From contig OX597831.1 in assembly GCA_951406725.2 (NCBI GenBank), positions 35,464,001-35,528,000 of the forward strand: a stretch of 64,000 nt of DNA, written 5' to 3'. Position 1 is the stretch's first letter. Each line of letters starts with the position of its first letter. The stretch comes from Octopus vulgaris (taxonomy: Eukaryota). A program made the position numbers and the translations under genes. The notes beneath the pieces were generated by a model. That model had not been told where the DNA came from, did not search any database, and saw nothing but the letters and a program-made list of their open reading frames with translations. Below, piece by piece: positions 5,041 to 32,175 of this stretch.

Positions 5041-5402
5041 TGTGGAGGTACAATGGCCCAGTGGTTAGGGCAGTGAACTCGCGGTCATAGGATCACAGTT
5101 TTGGTTCCCAGACTGGGCGTTGTGAGTGTTTATTGAGTGAAAACACCTAGAGCATCATGACGCTCCAGCAGGAAGTGGTGGGGGAACCCTGCTATACTCT
5201 TTCACCACAACTTTCTCTCACTCTTTCTTCCTGTTTCTGTTGTACCTGTATTTCAAAAGGGCCAGCCTTGTAACACTCTGTGTCACGCTGAATCTCCTTG
5301 AGAACTATGTTAAGGGTACACATGTCTGTGGAGTTTCACAAGCAGGCTGTTTCGTCGATCGGATCATCTGGAGCCCTCATTGTTGTAACCGATGGAGTGC
5401 CA
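5041..5402 (+). mobile_element. tRNA-derived SINE family C
   Basis: A box TGGCCCAGTGG. Related copies at 30288-30670 (-), 32232-32552, 57597-57860 and 63540-63840. Confidence 0.8.
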
Positions 5403-18053: not shown

Positions 18054-19091
18054 CAGTAGTAGTAGTAGTAATAGTAGTTGCTGCTGTTGTTGTTGTTGTT
18101 GCAACTTAATTACATTAGAAAACACTTTTATTTAGCTGAAACTACATCAGACTCTCGAAATTGTATTTTCCGAACAGAAATTGAGTGATTAATAAAATTT
18201 GGACTGTGTTAATTTTGTTCTTGAACAAGGAAATTGCATCATTTACCAGCAAACAACAAGGATAAAATATGTAAAAAAAAAAAAAAATTTTAAAAAAACC
18301 CATGACAACAGTGAAAAACAAACAAGCAAAAAAGAAACACCACAAGAAAACAACAAACAAAAATGAAAAAGACAACAAAAACAAGGTGACGTCCACAACA
18401 ATAACATCAGCAATGCAACAAGATCAGTGATATCAGGAAAAATAATCTTCTGCTTAACAAACCAAATAATGTCAGTAATATAAATAATAGTGAGAACAAT
18501 AAAAAATAAGGTGTCAAAGAGAGAACCTCTAAGTGGTTGCACAGTGTACTAGAAATAACAGCTAAGTTTCCCTCAAATCATACCTTAGCATCTTTGATAC
18601 GGATTTGTTAGGTAATGCATACACAAACACACGAGGTAGTTTTGGTGAAGCATTGTGAGGTATAACTTTAAAGAATATAGTTGTATAAAGCCGGTACAAT
18701 GTGAAATGGTACAAAGTAAACTACAAAAAGAAAAAAAATAAACAGATCAAAGCTGCAGTTTTTTACTTTGTATTTCTATACTTCGGGTTGAAGGTCTCTT
18801 CTTCAAGACATTTGGGATAGTAGTTGGAAAAGGTCATTGCTTAGATATATGTATATATAAGTGACATTTTTTTCATGATTTTTGTTAGTTTTAAATGCAA
18901 TTAATGAGCTGATAATAAATAGAATGATGTTAAGAAAAATGAGAAAAAGAGAGAAGAAAAAGAAATACATAAGTATAAAAGATAAAAATTCTTATAATTT
19001 ATAACATCAATATAATATGTGTGAGTATGTGTATCTGTCTGTCTGCCTGTCTCTGTTTCTCTCTCTATACATATATATATATATATATATA

Positions 19092-19280
19092 GGGAAAGTT
19101 TACAAAAAAAACAAAAGACGAAGACAGGTGGTGTACAAAACAAACAGATGTATTAGTATAACGCTCAGGAACAGAAAATGTCTTTTACGTTTCGAGCCTA
19201 TGCTCTTCTACAGAAAGGTACACAGAAAAAACAAGTAGAGAAAAAAAATGTGTGTAGTGGCTAATGATCTATCATGGCGA
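19092..19280 (-). mobile_element. Penelope-like pseudo-LTR fragment with minimal hammerhead motif (19182-19217)
   Basis: Minus strand CUUU CUGUAGA A GAGC-auag-GCUC GAAA CG UA AAAG, (TA)n flanks. Homologous to 32017-32175. Confidence 0.65.
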
Positions 19281-19316: not shown

Positions 19317-19637
19317 GGAAATTTAGATATATACATTATGAGTCGAGACAAATATCGTCAGCTGACCGGTGTCTGCTACTCTAGGGCGACGAAGGACAAT
19401 CATCCTGAAACACGTGTCCCTAGATGCAGCCCGGGCGGCTGGGGGTATTTGTCTCCCCTTCGTAAATGTATATAAGGACACAGGAAAAATGTGTCAAAGC
19501 CATCAGGAGGCGTCGATGGGCTAAACAGCGGTGGTGAACACCCCTACTGTCACGTTCGTGTTAGATTGACAGTATACAACCATTCTATCGCCCCACCACC
19601 GTACATGTCTCTATGAGAGATTTAGAAATTTAGTATT

Positions 19638-19642
<5 letters not shown>
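19317..19642 (+). ncRNA. Structured hammerhead-containing element (retrozyme-like), copy 1
   Basis: UCUAGG GCGACGA AGGA-caauca-UCCU GAAA CACGUG UC CCUAGA at the tip of a long stem (19345-19455), followed by several hairpins. Sits in (TA)n. Confidence 0.65.
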
Positions 19643-19672
<30 letters not shown>

Positions 19673-19698
19673 TCGTACATGTCTCTATATATATATAT

Positions 19699-19914
19699 CC
19701 GAAATACTACGCTACATTGACAAAGGGCAAATACCCTGAAACACGTCTGTAGCTGTCTGACTGGCAGTGTGAAGCGGCTGACCTTCCTTGTTCGAAGGTT
19801 ATAATGGACACAGTTTGTGTGTCAAATAGCTATCTTAAGGCGATGGCCTCATGGAGCTAATTAGCGACAGCTTTTAGTCTTATATCTATAAGACTGCCAT
19901 ATTAATATGGCGAT

Positions 19915-19920
<6 letters not shown>
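19699..19920 (+). ncRNA. Structured hammerhead-containing element (retrozyme-like), copy 2
   Basis: GCUACA UUGACAA AGGG-caaaua-CCCU GAAA CACG UC UGUAGC (19711-19753), then the GGACACA/TGTGTC hairpin module. (TA)n flanks. Confidence 0.65.
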
Positions 19921-19983
<63 letters not shown>

Positions 19984-20051
19984 CCTTTTTACCAGGCGGG
20001 GTATAGAGTTTCACTATACAACAATTTCCCTGTCCCTTTCCACAGTATGTT

Positions 20052-20490
20052 ACTCTTTTATTCTTTTACTTGTTTCAGTCATTTGACTGTGGCCATGCTG
20101 GAGCACCACCTTTAGTCGAGCAAATCGACCCCAGGACTTATTCTTTGTAAGCTTAGTACTTATTCTAGCGGTCTCTTTTGCTGAATCACTAGGTTACAGG
20201 TTCATAAACACACCAGCATCTATTGTCAAGCGACGTTGGGGCGACAAACACAGACACACAAACATATACACACACATACATATACATATATATGTATATC
20301 TATATATATATATATATATATATACAATGGGCTTCTTTCAGTTTCCATCTACCAAATCCACTCACAAGGGTTTGCTTTGCCCAAGGCTATAGTTGAAGAC
20401 ATTTGCCCAGGGTGCCATGCAGTGGGACTGAACCCGGAACCATGTGGTTCGTAAGCAAGCTACTTACAACACAGTCACTCCTACGCCTAT
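20052..20490 (-). mobile_element. tRNA-derived SINE family B (CORE-like GGCACCTTGGGCAAGTGTCTT, internal microsatellite, GTAAAAGA tail)
   Basis: Near full-length copy. Others at 29422-29824 (-) and 48650-49075 (-). Confidence 0.85.
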
Positions 20491-21082
20491 GATATTTATA
20501 TTTCATATTTATTGATGTGAAATTAGATAATTAGAAATCAACATTTTCCAATATTGAGATGGCAAGCTGGTAGAATTATTATGGTGCCAGTAAAATTGCT
20601 TAGCAGCATTCCAACTGACTGTATGTTCTGCATTCAAATGCCACTGGAATCGACTTTACCTTTCATTCTTTTGAAATCGATAAAATAAATACCAGTTGAA
20701 CACTGGGGTCGATATAATCAACTTATCCTCTCCTTTGACATTGCTGGTCTTGTGCCAAAGTTTGAAACCAATATTTACCAATACATTCTTTGAATTCTTG
20801 GAGCAGGAATCCTTGGAGTGTGGTTGAGAAGTTCACTGCTAAACCACTTGGTATTATGTTTGGTCCCACTGCATGGCACCTTGGGCAAGTGTCTTGTTCT
20901 CTTGACTGAGGCCAACTAAAATCTTGTGAGTGGAATTGGTTGAGGGAAACTGAAATAAGCCCATCGTAAATGTGCATGTATATGTATTTGTGTGTGCGTG
21001 GTAGGGTTCATGTTTGAATGTGTGTGTGTGTGTGTGTTTGTGTGTGTGTATGTTGTGTGTGTGTGTGTGTGTGTTGGTGTCT

Positions 21083-22177
21083 AATCATCATCATCCTCAT
21101 CACCACCATCACCACCTTCGTTATCATGATCATGATCATGATGATCACCATCATCACTGCTGCCAGTACCACTGCCCTCACCACCACCACCACCACCATG
21201 ACTACTACGATGATGACCATGACCACAACCCCGACCATGATGACCACAATGATGACCACCACCACCAACACCACCGTTATCATGATCACTAGCCATCACT
21301 CTCATCCTTGTTGCTCTCTTCACAATCATTAGCATCACCGTCATGGTTATCATTAATAGCATCCACTTCCTTCTCCTGCTTCTCCTACCGCTCATCACTG
21401 CCACCACACTGCCATCGTCATCATCATTGTTGTCATCACTACAACAACCATTGTCATCTTAATCAACGATGACCACAACACCAACAGTTAAACTGTAAAT
21501 GCAAAATAAAACAGCTCCAATGTAATTTTTAGAAAATTAAAAACTTAAAATACGAGGAAAAAAAAGCAAGCAGATATTTTATGCAATCATTATAACAGTG
21601 ACAAAAAAAAAACAGAACAAAACAAAACAATTTAAACAGAAAAATAGCAAAAACAATTATCAAAAATAACAAAAATATCCAACATAATCAGACCCTCACA
21701 ACAGCAAAAAAAAAAAAACAATAAAAAAAAACAACAAAGCTAAAAAAAAACAATACATTGAAGTACATACATAGAACAATAACAACAACAAAACTGCATT
21801 TCGCAGAATTATCATTGTCATCATCATTGCCATCATTGTCATTGTCGTCGTCATCGTCATCATCTTTGTTGTCATCATCATCAGTGTCATCATCATTACC
21901 ATTGTCATCATCATAGCCAGCCCCATGACGATGATCATCATCGTCGTCATCATCGTCATCATCATCATGTCATTTATCATCATCGTCATCATCATTGTCA
22001 TAGTCATCATAACCATCCTCATCATCATCATTGTCATCATCACTATCATCATGATCATCATCTCCATCATCATCATCTTCATCACCATCATCATAATCAT
22101 TATCACCGACATCACCATCATTGACATCATCATCATTATCATCATTAGCATTGTCTTCTTCATTATCATCATCTTTG

Positions 22178-22217
<40 letters not shown>

Positions 22218-22639
22218 GACATTGAAAAAGCAGCCTGGGAAAAAACTGATAAAAATTCTCAAATTTGGTTGTTGTGGTTGAGGGGCTGGTATGGTGGTAC
22301 AGAAAAAAAATATCTCTCTCCACAAAAAAAAAAGACAAAATGAGATGATTTATAAATGTTTGTTAATGGATCATTTCCTTTCAAGAAGAAAAAAAAAGGA
22401 AAAGAATCTATTTCCCTGGCTTTGTGCAGCAGGTCTAATAATCTGCCACCCATTCCCTCCTCTTCCTTCCTGGTCAACTCCACCATCTATCCACCCCACA
22501 ATACTCTCAATTCCACCACAGCAGCATGTGAGGTGTCATCGTTTAATGTGCAAGGCATAAACTCTAAAAACGGTATCGGAAATATTTCCTCGTGAAAGTG
22601 ATTTATCGATTCCTGCTCGTCCCCTCTCTCACCCTCTCA

Positions 22640-22672
<33 letters not shown>

Positions 22673-23945
22673 TCTCTCATTAAATACGGCTAAAGGTCGG
22701 CCATCTTGTTCGCCACCGTTGACAACTTTCGGTGGAAAACTCGGGAGTCTTGACTTGAAACTTCGACATGTGTTGTAACATGTGATCGCAGTCACTGACA
22801 ATTAGAATTGATTTACAGGTGCTTGCCGTACGCAGGTGGTGGTGGCGGCGGCGGCAGCGGTGGTTATAGTAGGTGTGATGGTGGTGGTCCTGGTCTTGGT
22901 TGTGGTGATGCTGGCGGTTGAGGATGGTTGGGGATTGGGGAAAGGATGGTCATGTTGCTGATTATTGTGGTGGTGCTGGTGGTGGCCATGATGATGGTCA
23001 TTGATGATGGCAATGGTGGTGGTGGTGATGGTGGTGATAATGGCGATGGCTTTGGAGGTATTTCTTATGGTGATGCTTGTGGTGGTGATGGCAGTTGATG
23101 GTAATAGGTTTGTGATGATGATGATGGTGGTCATGATAATAATGGTTGGTGGTTGTGGAAGTGATGGTCATGTTGGCAATAGTAGTGATGATGATGGTGT
23201 TGGTTGTAATGATGGTGATGGTGGCAATGGTAGATGTGGAAGTTATGGTTGTGGTCACGATGTATATCATAGTAGAGCTTTTGATGGTGGCAAGAGTGGT
23301 AGTGGTGGTGGTTGTGACAATGCTAAACTTTGATGGTGGTAGTGGTGTTGGTTATGTTGGTTGGTAGATGGTGGCAATGTTTTGGTGGTGATAACTGCGT
23401 GATGCTGTACAGAGGTGGTGGAGTTGTGGTTCAATAGTTGCAGTTGTCCTTGATGTAGTTGTTGTTGGTGATGGTGGTGATAGACAATAAGTTGGTGGTA
23501 ATTGTAGTTGTGGTGGTGATGGTGGTGGTGATGGAGTTGTACTGATTGTGATGGTGGCTGTAGTGGTATTGTGATGCTGGTGATAGTAATGTTTATATTA
23601 GTATTGTAGTTATGGTGATGTTGTTTATAATGGTGGTGGTAGTGGTAGGGTTGACTACAATGGTGGTGGTGGTAGCGTCAGTGATTTTCATTGTAGATGG
23701 TGATGACGATGATGGTGATGTTACTGATTATTGACCGTGATAGTTATGACTGGTAGTACAGATTGTTGTTGTTTTGATGGTGGTGATGTTGGTTGTGGTG
23801 GTCGTGGTTGTGGTTATTGTAGTTGGTGGTTGATTGTAGTTGTGGTTATTGTGGTTAGTAGTTATAATGTTGCTGGTGAGGGTAGTTGTTCTAGTAGAGG
23901 TTATTGTGATGTCTGTGGCAGTTGTGATGGTAATGGATATAGGGG
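21083..23945. repeat. (CAT/CAC)n and (GTG/GAT)n low-complexity blocks flanking a unique island
   Basis: Direct inspection. Confidence 0.9.
22520..22835. promoter_or_regulatory. Candidate intronic cis-regulatory element
   Basis: CpG-retaining sequence with TGATTTAT (22599), TGATTTAC (22809), TGACA/TGTCA (22796, 22534) and GCCATCTT (22700). Confidence 0.35.
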
Positions 23946-24325
23946 TTGGTAAACACATCCATTTTGGATCAGTTATCCTATCCAAAATGGACAACATAAT
24001 TACCAACATCTCATACTGGAGCACTTGAAGAGTTGTGAATTTTTTTCCACGTCAAAATTTGATACATATAAAAAATGTTACACTTCTCTGATGGCTTGAC
24101 AATACATCTTGATTATGTAATTTGCTTTATGTTACCAATAATGACCTTACGCTAATGAAACCTACGTAAGACTGTGAAACAAAATATCTTATAAACAATT
24201 TCTCATGTTATGTTTTACTTATAAATATACATACATATTTATATGAGTGTGTGCATGTGTGTATGTATGTGTGTGTGTGTGAATATATATATACACATAC
24301 AATTTATTATTATATAATTTCTTAG

Positions 24326-24452
24326 GGAAAAGGCATTGAAGAAGTTTAATGAAGAGCACCCAGCCATTCTTGACCCTCACAGTGTTGCTCCTCTTGATCG
24401 GTCGAGAATCAGAAAGAACAAATCTGAAAAGTCTGTGGAGAAAGCCCCTAAA
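24326..24452 (+). CDS. CFAP221: CFAP221 exon C (EKALKKFNEEHPAILDPHSVAPLDRSRIRKNKSEKSVEKAPK)
   Basis: tttcttag acceptor, AAA|gtaagt donor. The 127 nt complete the split ATG and exit in phase 0 with no stops. Confidence 0.82.
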
Positions 24453-25026
24453 GTAAGTCCTTTCATTTAAGGAAAATTGCTAACAAATCAAAGAAATACA
24501 AACAGAGGTGCAAAACATAGTTTCAGAGCTAAAAAATATTTGCTAATTTGTGACAGAATTTTTTTTTTAATAAAAGCAGACATTCGATGATATATTCCAA
24601 AATACATTCTATCAGCTATAAAAGAAGTTAAGCTCCCCACAGAATTTTTACCACTGTAATGCCTCTGCATGATCAGTGGTGGCCTGGGGGTTAAACAACA
24701 TTGTAAACACTGCCACAATCATCACTGCCACCACAACTACCATCGCCACAATCACAACCACCACCAACCCCTCCACCCCACCACCTCCACTTCTACCCCT
24801 CCACCCCACCCAGCCCTCCACTCCACCCAGCCCTCCACCCCACCCAGCCCTCCATTCCACCCCCCAACCCTCTACACCACCACCAACCACTGCGACGACA
24901 ACAACGACGATGACCACCACCACCACCATCTTTTTAACTCTCTGTCTTTCTATTTGTCTTTCTAATTCTCTCTCTGTCTTTCTGTCTTTCTCTCTAACTC
25001 TCTGTCTCTGTTTGTCCATCTGACTT

Positions 25027-25065
<39 letters not shown>

Positions 25066-25543
25066 ATCTCTTTTATCCAACAGGGCTACCCACATAATCT
25101 CCTCTTCAGCAAGACACCTACCTCTATCCCTCTATTTTTTTTTTTAACTCCTCATCACCTGACACAAAGTAACTTCCCTTAATATTGCTCTTCCTCCCAG
25201 TTGAGGGTTCGTCATTTGGCGAGTTACTTGGTGACCCTACCAGTGCTGGTGCCACATGAAAAGTACCTAATACACTCTGTAAAGTGGTTGGCATTAAGAG
25301 GGGTACCCAGTCATAAAAACCATGCTAAAGCTGACAATAGAGCTTGGTGCAATCTTCTGGCTTACCAGCTCCTGTCAAACCATCCAAACCATGCCAGCTT
25401 GGAAAAGGAATGTTAAATGAAGATGATGATGATGATAATATGCCTAAACAAGAAGCTTTTGTAAGCTTTCGTTTTTTTTTTCTTTTTGCATTTGTTCTAA
25501 AATATTTTCTTCATATTTTCTCTCTTGGAACATTTTATCAAAG

Positions 25544-25655
25544 GAAATAGAATATAATGGCTATCAGTTTCCTGCTCAAATGAATACTGTTCATGCTGTT
25601 TCAAAAGTGCTTAATCAAAAGCCTCATAAGTTGTGCACCAAGGATTTAAAAAACA
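25544..25655 (+). CDS. CFAP221: CFAP221 exon D (EIEYNGYQFPAQMNTVHAVSKVLNQKPHKLCTKDLKN)
   Basis: aag acceptor, A|gtaagg donor. Resembles recalled EIEYQNLRFPVDLSNPFAVATVLNQEPGKLKIKELRE. Confidence 0.9.
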
Positions 25656-26446
25656 GTAAGGAACCTCTATATTAATATATCATTCTTAAATGCTTGTGAC
25701 CTGATATTTTTCTTTGTCTTTCATTTTGCCATATCTGATAAGCCTCAAGCCACAGTTGATCCAGGGATCAAATTTTCATTTGTTCAATAATTGAATCATT
25801 CTTAGATATTTATATAAACTGTAAATGCTTCCTAAACCATAAGAAGTTTTTTTCTTTGCCAGGATTTAACCCCAATTTCATGGCATTAAGAAAGTAAATG
25901 AGAAATGACTCCTTGGGAAAACTGCCAAATGGCCTTCATTTAAGACAGGATTACGGTTGCTATTTCAGGAAGATTTAGCTACTTTATAGAGACATCAGTA
26001 TTTAAGACAAGAGTATGTGATTTTGAGGGAGATTTGATAGCTATTTCAGGAAGATTTAGCTACTGCATTGAGGCGTTAGCATTGAACCATGATCTCTTAA
26101 GTTGCTTTTTTTGTTGTTTAGCTCTAGTTCAACAAAGTCTTTCCAACCATGACCACTTCATTTTCTATGCAGTAAGTAGGACTACATTATCTAATGTGGC
26201 CCTTTCTTATTTAAGACAGAGATAGTAGGGTGTAATTTGAGGGAGATTTGGCTATTGTTTCTAGTGGATAAAATGACTATACTACATGTAGTATCACTTG
26301 TTACTTTGAGTTTCCACCGATGGTTCATAAAACCTCAGATGAACAAGGAATCGAGAATGGGAAGTTACGAGGGTAACATATATACATACATACATACATA
26401 CATACATACATACATACATACATACATACATACATACATACATACA

Positions 26447-26477
<31 letters not shown>

Positions 26478-27034
26478 CATATATATACATATATATACAT
26501 ACCCAATTTATATATATGTGTTGTCAGAGTCATATTTAGAAGGAAAACATGTCTGGAGTTGAGTAGATCCAGATTCATTGAGAGTAAAAATGATAGATAT
26601 AAAAGAATGTAATTGAAATCTGACGGAAATTGAAGCAAATATATTCGTCTCATTTTATTTAATGTCAACATGTTTTCTCATTGATATTATCATCTCCTGA
26701 ATTCATTAGAGATTCACAGAAATCCGATTTGGTGTAGACAGATGCTTCCCTTTCATACTGACCAGATAAATTGGATTTCGCTGTATTAATGTTGAAGAAA
26801 TGACTGAGAAGAAGAACTAACCAGGTAGATCATTGGTGAAGCAAAATTGTTGTGTTTCATAATAACTATTAAAGAAGCATGGCTGTGTGGTAAGATGGTT
26901 GTTTCTCAGCCACATGGTTCTGGGTTCAGTCCTACTGCATGGCACCTTGGGCAAGTGTCTTCCACTATAGCCCTATGCTGACAAAAATGTTGTGTGTGGT
27001 TTTGGTAAACAAAAACAATTATATATCTGTTATA

Positions 27035-27384
27035 TCGGAAATCTGCAATGGCTCCATAACTACCATCTTGGCTACAACTTTGGAGCCTTAGTAATCCGTT
27101 ACAGCACTTACCTAGCATTGGGACCCCTTCGCATCGAAGACTGGTGATTGTCATGCACTGACGGCGGGTAAATACCCAGAAACCCCGGGTCGGTGCATAT
27201 CACGTCATGTCGACAATGGGAAGGATGGCTTCCCTTTGCAAATACTGATAGGGCACAAAAAGTGTGTCAATAGCCAGCTGGAGAAGATGTTCTCTTGGGG
27301 CTACAAGTTACAGTAGCATCCACCCTTAGTGGTTAGCCACATTTAAGTGGCAAATATACATCGCATATACCTCATTCAGAGATT

Positions 27385-27388
<4 letters not shown>
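27035..27388 (+). ncRNA. Structured hammerhead-containing element (retrozyme-like), copy 3
   Basis: AUGCA CUGACGG C GGGU-aaau-ACCC A GAAA CCCCGGG UC GGUGCAU (27153-27198), then the GGGCACA/TGTGTC hairpin module. Followed by (TA)n. Confidence 0.6.
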
Positions 27389-27447
<59 letters not shown>

Positions 27448-32018: not shown

Positions 32019-32175
32019 ATAACTCCAAAAGTTTTCTATTCTTGCTCTGTTTATTTCCTCATGTTCCTTTCTGTTGAAGAGTGTAGGCTCGAAACATAAA
32101 AGACTTTCTCACCTTCCCGAGCATTAAACTAATACACATGTCTTCGTCTTTTGTTTTTCTGTAAATTTCAACTGT
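32017..32175 (+). mobile_element. Penelope-like pseudo-LTR fragment with minimal hammerhead motif (32067-32102)
   Basis: CUUU CUGUUGA A GAGU-guag-GCUC GAAA CA UA AAAG, (TA)n flanks. Confidence 0.62.

Follow-up and report, generated by a model that had tools for sequence, protein, structure and literature searches.

The three GC-richer islands of the window, a 64,000-nt stretch of Octopus vulgaris DNA, are very probably damaged, 5'-truncated copies of three non-coding tandem families with units of about 360 nt and one covarying fold. On sequence grounds these families are likely to be non-LTR retrozymes, with predicted self-cutting by double hammerheads and likely copying into (TA)n targets by the reverse transcriptase (RT) and endonuclease of a Penelope-like element (PLE). 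A preliminary description of this DNA had proposed that a Penelope-type enzyme moves a non-autonomous family in which structure is conserved and a hammerhead is present, and this is still the best reading, with which covariation, tandem units and PLE-type insertion marks agree. Elements of this kind have already been described (PMC7229834; 10.64898/2026.07.22.740005); the families, here called A to E, would be new members of it, in which the fold of the entire unit is conserved and the two 3' ends follow a strict rule.

The islands were found where they had been placed. Each is a partial unit (326, 215 and about 275 nt out of about 360 nt) and a 5'-truncated copy of its own high-copy family, A, B or C, on the plus strand. 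The family A copy (19318-19643) extends from unit position 260 to 232 across the cut site, has the long 3' end and carries an 8-nt deletion within the second hairpin. Its hammerhead (19380-19424), with the palindrome ACACGTGT intact and a predicted cut after 19418, is followed by the conserved hairpin H1 (19477-19495) and by the tail between the short and long 3' ends (19588-19643), which contains AGAGATTTA at 19616-19624. The (TA)n target tract lies 3' of the copy (19642-19669), and a 20-nt repeat of the tail stands after it, at about 19670-19689. The family B copy (19706-19920, unit positions 323 to 173) has the short 3' end; it comprises a hammerhead with a U3-A8 core (19711-19753, predicted cut after 19747) and H1 (19807-19823), and is flanked by a (TA)n tract at 19919-19981. 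The family C copy (27115-27390, unit positions 282 to 218) has the long 3' end and an 18-nt deletion in the tail, with AGAGATTTA at 27378-27386. It comprises a hammerhead (27152-27197, predicted cut after 27191) and H1 (27252-27268), and the (TA)n tract follows at 27388-27445.

The window sequence bore out the stem I and stem II pairs and the GAAA in all three islands, the three GUC sites, the G(A/G)CACA/UGUGUC hairpin starting at 19477, 19807 and 27252 together with the stem that follows it, the TA tracts at the 3' ends and the presence of AGAGATTTA in copies 1 and 3. The third island had been drawn as 27035-27388; its element part stands and begins only at 27115, and the first 82 nt were rejected as part of the element. 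This piece, at 27033-27114 directly 5' of copy C, belongs to a different repeat and is 76-91% like pieces of L043, L141 and L155. GAAAT had been taken as the common start of the islands, which was also rejected, as the 5' ends are spread across the entire unit and the shared GAAAT is a coincidence. Nor do the islands share almost no primary sequence, as had been supposed: identity between the families is 56-66% in global alignment, with scores of 161-298 compared to shuffled means of 81-93.

The assignment to type I hammerheads held for the fold; the motifs are of the canonical short-repeat type and not of the minimal PLE type, and none of the three window copies matches the family core plus palindrome. 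Copy A has G at position 3, where the family consensus has C. In copy B the palindrome is broken (ACACGT for the family ACGCGT), and copy C has G at position 9, one extra palindrome base and a broken first pair of stem I. These mutations are absent from the respective family consensus. The three window copies thus differ from it in core or palindrome and are probably inactive. Rfam, proposed earlier as a check, gave no hammerhead match on the mutated islands up to an E value of 10, and no hammerhead was among the 150 of 289 matches listed for the whole window; the Rfam miRNA matches on the window were driven by microsatellites and were discarded. In the shuffle control the window copies folded better than shuffled sequences (z of -6.9, -2.85 and -3.6).

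The genome comprises 2.8 billion bases in about 30 large contigs, in which a first look gave 2023 candidates for family A, 2534 for B, 3815 for C, 2124 for D and 484 for E. Forty candidates were scored per family for A, B and C, and the best other full-length copies were 88-99% alike. Full units, derived from tandem or overlapping copies, are 360 (A), 364 (B) and 357 nt (C) long. Families D (359 nt) and E (355 nt) were found in stretches sampled at round coordinates. D is the youngest of the five and the richest in tandems, with a 5.6-unit tandem plus inverted arm and best copies 99-100% alike; E is old. Since the five families are 56-66% alike in pairwise comparison, they are diverged homologues. 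A model built from 10 copies found further copies in 10 of 80 such stretches of 10 kb at E < 0.001, two of the 10 matched stretches being in the training set. Extrapolation from these 80 stretches gives a rough figure of 35,000 insertions genome-wide (17,000-64,000 by Poisson). Both the family number and the copy number rest on samples of the genome. Family B sequence is also present in sequencing runs under six organism labels.

Units of 355-364 nt are within the 150-450 bp, dimer-to-multimer range of retrozymes, and their GC content is 41-50% (under about 45% for retrozymes). The tandem copies that had been called for were found in A, B and D, and in C and E only as a unit plus overlap. Units of 359-365 nt are self-contained and join head to tail directly, with nothing between them, and there are no LTRs and no PLE protein match within the units, which are non-coding. 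No coding partner was found in the loci checked, where RT/endonuclease matches were few and lay outside the elements.

The five families share a predicted fold in which a type I hammerhead, its helix III being palindromic, is combined with a long rod and a cluster of hairpins. Counted from the cut site all units are alike: stem I continues as a rod whose sides measure about 55 nt each and which the hairpin cluster closes. Full units fold better than shuffled sequences (z of -5.1 to -8.3). Covariation was observed: among 10 copies 90% of 300 cells were paired and 22 of 30 pairs changed on both sides; slid controls reached 33-47%. As the 10 aligned rows are related and locally out of register, and the structure was derived from these same sequences, the figures are not a probability. 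The helices of the hammerhead gave the strongest signal (14 of 15 pairs); H1, where the A rows are misaligned, gave a weaker one (2 of 6).

The consensus cores are CCGACGA (A), UUGACAA (B), CUGACGA (C and D) and CCGAUGA (E). The 3-8 core pair changes from C-G to U-A between families and also within D, one subfamily of which has UUGACAA, and each of the five families has a perfect palindrome of its own as helix III. Each consensus combines a helix I of 6 bp and a helix II of 4 bp with this short palindromic helix III, and helices I and II of these lengths assign the motif to the canonical metazoan type, which needs a second copy. Core and palindrome are intact in 25 of 30 (A), 29 of 30 (B) and 12 of 30 (C) best copies. 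In two-hammerhead constructs the shared helix III was predicted for A, B, C and E (P 0.69-0.89) and the double hammerhead was not predicted for D (P 0.0), while in single hammerheads helix III was never predicted (P about 0). There is a mismatch at the base of stem II in C and E. Families A and E have C at position 4, reported to lower in vitro activity yet to allow viroid infection. The 3' hammerhead of a second PLE family (L150, about 5300-5350; L155) also has C at position 4, so the variant recurs in unrelated elements of this genome.

The insertions have a characteristic footprint. The 3' ends fall at two positions past the cut site, a short one at about 173-181 nt and a long one at about 218-238 nt, and 57 of 107 distinct loci are two-armed, with the arms in opposite orientation. 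Among the two-armed loci 44 of 57 pair a short with a long end, none has two alike and 13 have one odd end; the A-C loci were sampled as best matches to the window copies (short plus long in 27 of 40 two-armed), and for D 21 long arrays were selected by hand (17 of 17 two-armed). The arms continue beyond the cut site and comprise up to 5.6 units. TATA or ATAT follows 121 of 149 canonical ends, a raw count taken without a genomic background rate. Partial tandems, variable 5' truncation, an inverted adjacent copy, a tail on one end only (the 44 of 57 short-plus-long loci) and a bias to (TA)n targets are marks of PLE mobilisation; such marks, with a tail of 30-40 bp on one end, are described for PLEs by Craig et al. 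2021 (10.1101/2021.04.23.441226). The tail between the two 3' ends holds a small hairpin and a AGAGATTT motif in A, C, D and E.

Since the arms run on past the cut site over as many as 5.6 units, the template is a circle or an uncut multimer. Subfamily variants recur in every unit of both arms, in arrays of up to 32 units, and locus-private variants are common to all units in 5 of 21 D arrays. Eight of the 21 are mosaics of unit variants, which a single monomer circle cannot produce, and the monomer circle as the only template was therefore dropped as unsupported. Possible sources of the mosaics are multimer circles, linear multimers, template switching and later exchange, each of which would suffice. 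In arrays L261 and L264 the unit variants fit a period of 3 along one arm, and those of L091 and L263 fit no period; the period of 3 is as expected from a trimer circle or from block duplication. Assembled contigs of runs guessed to be RNA cover B and D, and one crosses a D unit junction. Tandem DNA would give the same picture, so that these contigs carry no weight for RNA or circles, and none of the runs listed with the family sequence is on record as RNA.

As the copying helper we infer a young autonomous PLE with the same target and a tail that resembles that of the families. This element has a 781-aa frame encoding RT and GIY-YIG, with a CxxxxCxxC linker like that of the Neptune and Nematis PLEs (10.1101/2021.04.23.441226), and occurs in many near-identical copies in the genome. 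It carries a hammerhead near the 3' end, has TA targets and shows two 3' ends about 36 nt apart. Copies were seen in L141-L153 (e.g. L144, 1268-2704 and 2626-4968), and an upstream frame of up to 479 aa without a convincing Pfam match overlaps the 781-aa frame. The GIY-YIG candidates scored were the best 150 of 6136. In the 50 PLE loci sampled the retrozyme module was absent from the PLE ends, the model matching only separate short copies and, once, a hammerhead alone, and the units contain neither an RT plus GIY-YIG frame nor homology to the ends of these PLEs. The partnership is consequently deduced from the footprints only. A 3' signal shared with the young PLE was considered on the strength of a hairpin likeness seen by eye; it passed a shuffle test in D only (one of five families), weakly, and was not accepted.

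The following life cycle is suggested for the families. A tandem insertion would be transcribed, probably by read-through. The rod is predicted to close each unit and to bring neighbouring hammerheads together, whereupon the palindromes would form the shared helix III, both sites would be cut and a unit-length or multi-unit RNA would be freed. By analogy with known retrozymes its ends would be joined into a circle, which would persist because helix III cannot form in a lone circle. Copying would then be primed by the two ends of a cut (TA)n target, one start lying about 175-180 nt and the other about 220-238 nt past the cut site, as the footprint in the DNA suggests, and continuation past the cut site over as many as 5.6 units would yield the tandems and the inverted arm.

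The same insertions might come from short elements moved by a PLE that takes linear multi-unit transcripts as its template; these would stem from a few source arrays, the hammerhead would be slow or idle and no circle would form. Mosaic arrays, the failure of D to be predicted as a dimer and the weak core variants in A and E fit this explanation, as do the Naiad PLEs, which have the same footprints and are reported without hammerheads in the text of Craig et al. (10.1101/2021.04.23.441226). However, covariation across the five families extends to the core pair, the palindrome and both stems I and II, which implies selection on the ribozyme, and the period-3 patterns of L261 and L264 fit a multimer circle equally well. 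We consider copying from linear transcripts improbable.

It is highly improbable that an autonomous PLE outside the sample, which comprised the best 150 of 6136 GIY-YIG candidates, gave rise to the units as solo pseudo-LTRs or 3' stubs. PLE pseudo-LTRs do carry hammerheads (PMC4209133), and of 57 frog retrozyme families 24 resemble known elements, for the most part the ends of PLEs (10.64898/2026.07.22.740005), but the octopus units join directly, the model has no matches at the sampled PLE ends and the few RT/endonuclease matches in family loci are outside the elements. An origin as minisatellites multiplied by unequal exchange, or as folds arising by chance in GC-richer islands, is hardly credible and is refuted as the whole story by dispersal over most chromosomes, fixed 3' and variable 5' ends and inverted arms on the one hand, and by z values down to -8.3 and covariation on the other. 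The lack of an Rfam match had spoken for chance folds, and mosaic arrays could stem from post-insertion exchange, which may still act within arrays.

The retrozyme reading agrees with the metazoan non-LTR retrozymes of Cervera and de la Pena 2020 (PMC7229834), which also have a type I hammerhead per short tandem unit and no coding capacity, which are low in GC, and whose mussel units of 350-390 bp are similar to those found here. PLEs as the helper and circles as RT templates are proposed there, the same model as ours. Circles and cleavage were demonstrated for those elements, whereas the families described here are known from DNA and folding predictions; conversely, inverted arms, the two-end rule and a cross-family fold were not found in that account, and neither 'Octopus' nor 'cephalopod' occurs in its main text. 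Li, Clavereau and Pollet 2026 (bioRxiv 10.64898/2026.07.22.740005) describe animal retrozymes as non-autonomous PLE derivatives, likewise with monomers, dimers and multimers, dispersed monomers and PLE co-occurrence. The species given there are 31 vertebrates, three insects and one coral, with no mollusc among them. Many of their families match PLE ends while the octopus families match none of those sampled, and the link to PLEs is made there by co-occurrence and homology and here by the insertion footprint. Cleavage was reported in only one of nine predicted frog dimers.

Endonuclease-containing (EN+) PLEs share with our families the partial tandems, the inverted 5'-truncated copy, the one-end tail and the (TA)n bias (PMC4209133; 10.1101/2021.04.23.441226), and their hammerheads share the palindromic helix III, the dimer model and the U3-A8 core variant (Cervera and de la Pena 2014, PMC4209133; 10.1101/2021.04.23.441226). 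The octopus units differ in having no ORF, in a helix I of 6 bp and a helix II of 4 bp ('canonical' in PMC4209133, not the minimal PLE type) and in tails of 45-65 nt, compared to 30-40 in PLEs (10.1101/2021.04.23.441226). No report of cephalopod retrozymes was found in the literature searched; supplements of published papers or Repbase/Dfam may list these families.

A PLE helper and a circular template are proposals in the literature (PMC7229834; 10.64898/2026.07.22.740005). With a substrate of 360 nt, insertions numbering roughly in the tens of thousands, a fold that covaries and two priming positions mapped on the unit, the families allow direct tests of the helper, of the circle and of how the PLE tail arose, and they may be a large source of circular RNA in octopus. 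A more specific model is put forward tentatively and with considerable doubt. The hairpin cluster opposite the hammerhead might be a conserved RNA scaffold or origin on a circular, often multimeric, RNA, docking the Penelope RT/endonuclease pair at two fixed starts so that both cut DNA ends copy the circle at once. The octopus circle lineage would have kept the fold and lost 40% of the sequence together with the likeness to helper ends.

Other hammerhead-like repeats were encountered. One short repeat, distinct from the families above and very abundant, has a small motif like a hammerhead with the palindrome ACGT; it is present in the window at 19090-19275 on the minus strand (motif at 19213) and at about 32062-32168; the hammerhead-like core of the minus-strand copy at 19090-19275 is degenerate. 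Related motifs were seen in 7 of 80 sampled stretches, several with a CCGACGA core, and run out into TA tracts. L164, L165, L199 and L106 contain yet another short repeat, the third to bear a hammerhead, in which stem II is long; trinucleotide tracts adjoin it in two of three contexts.
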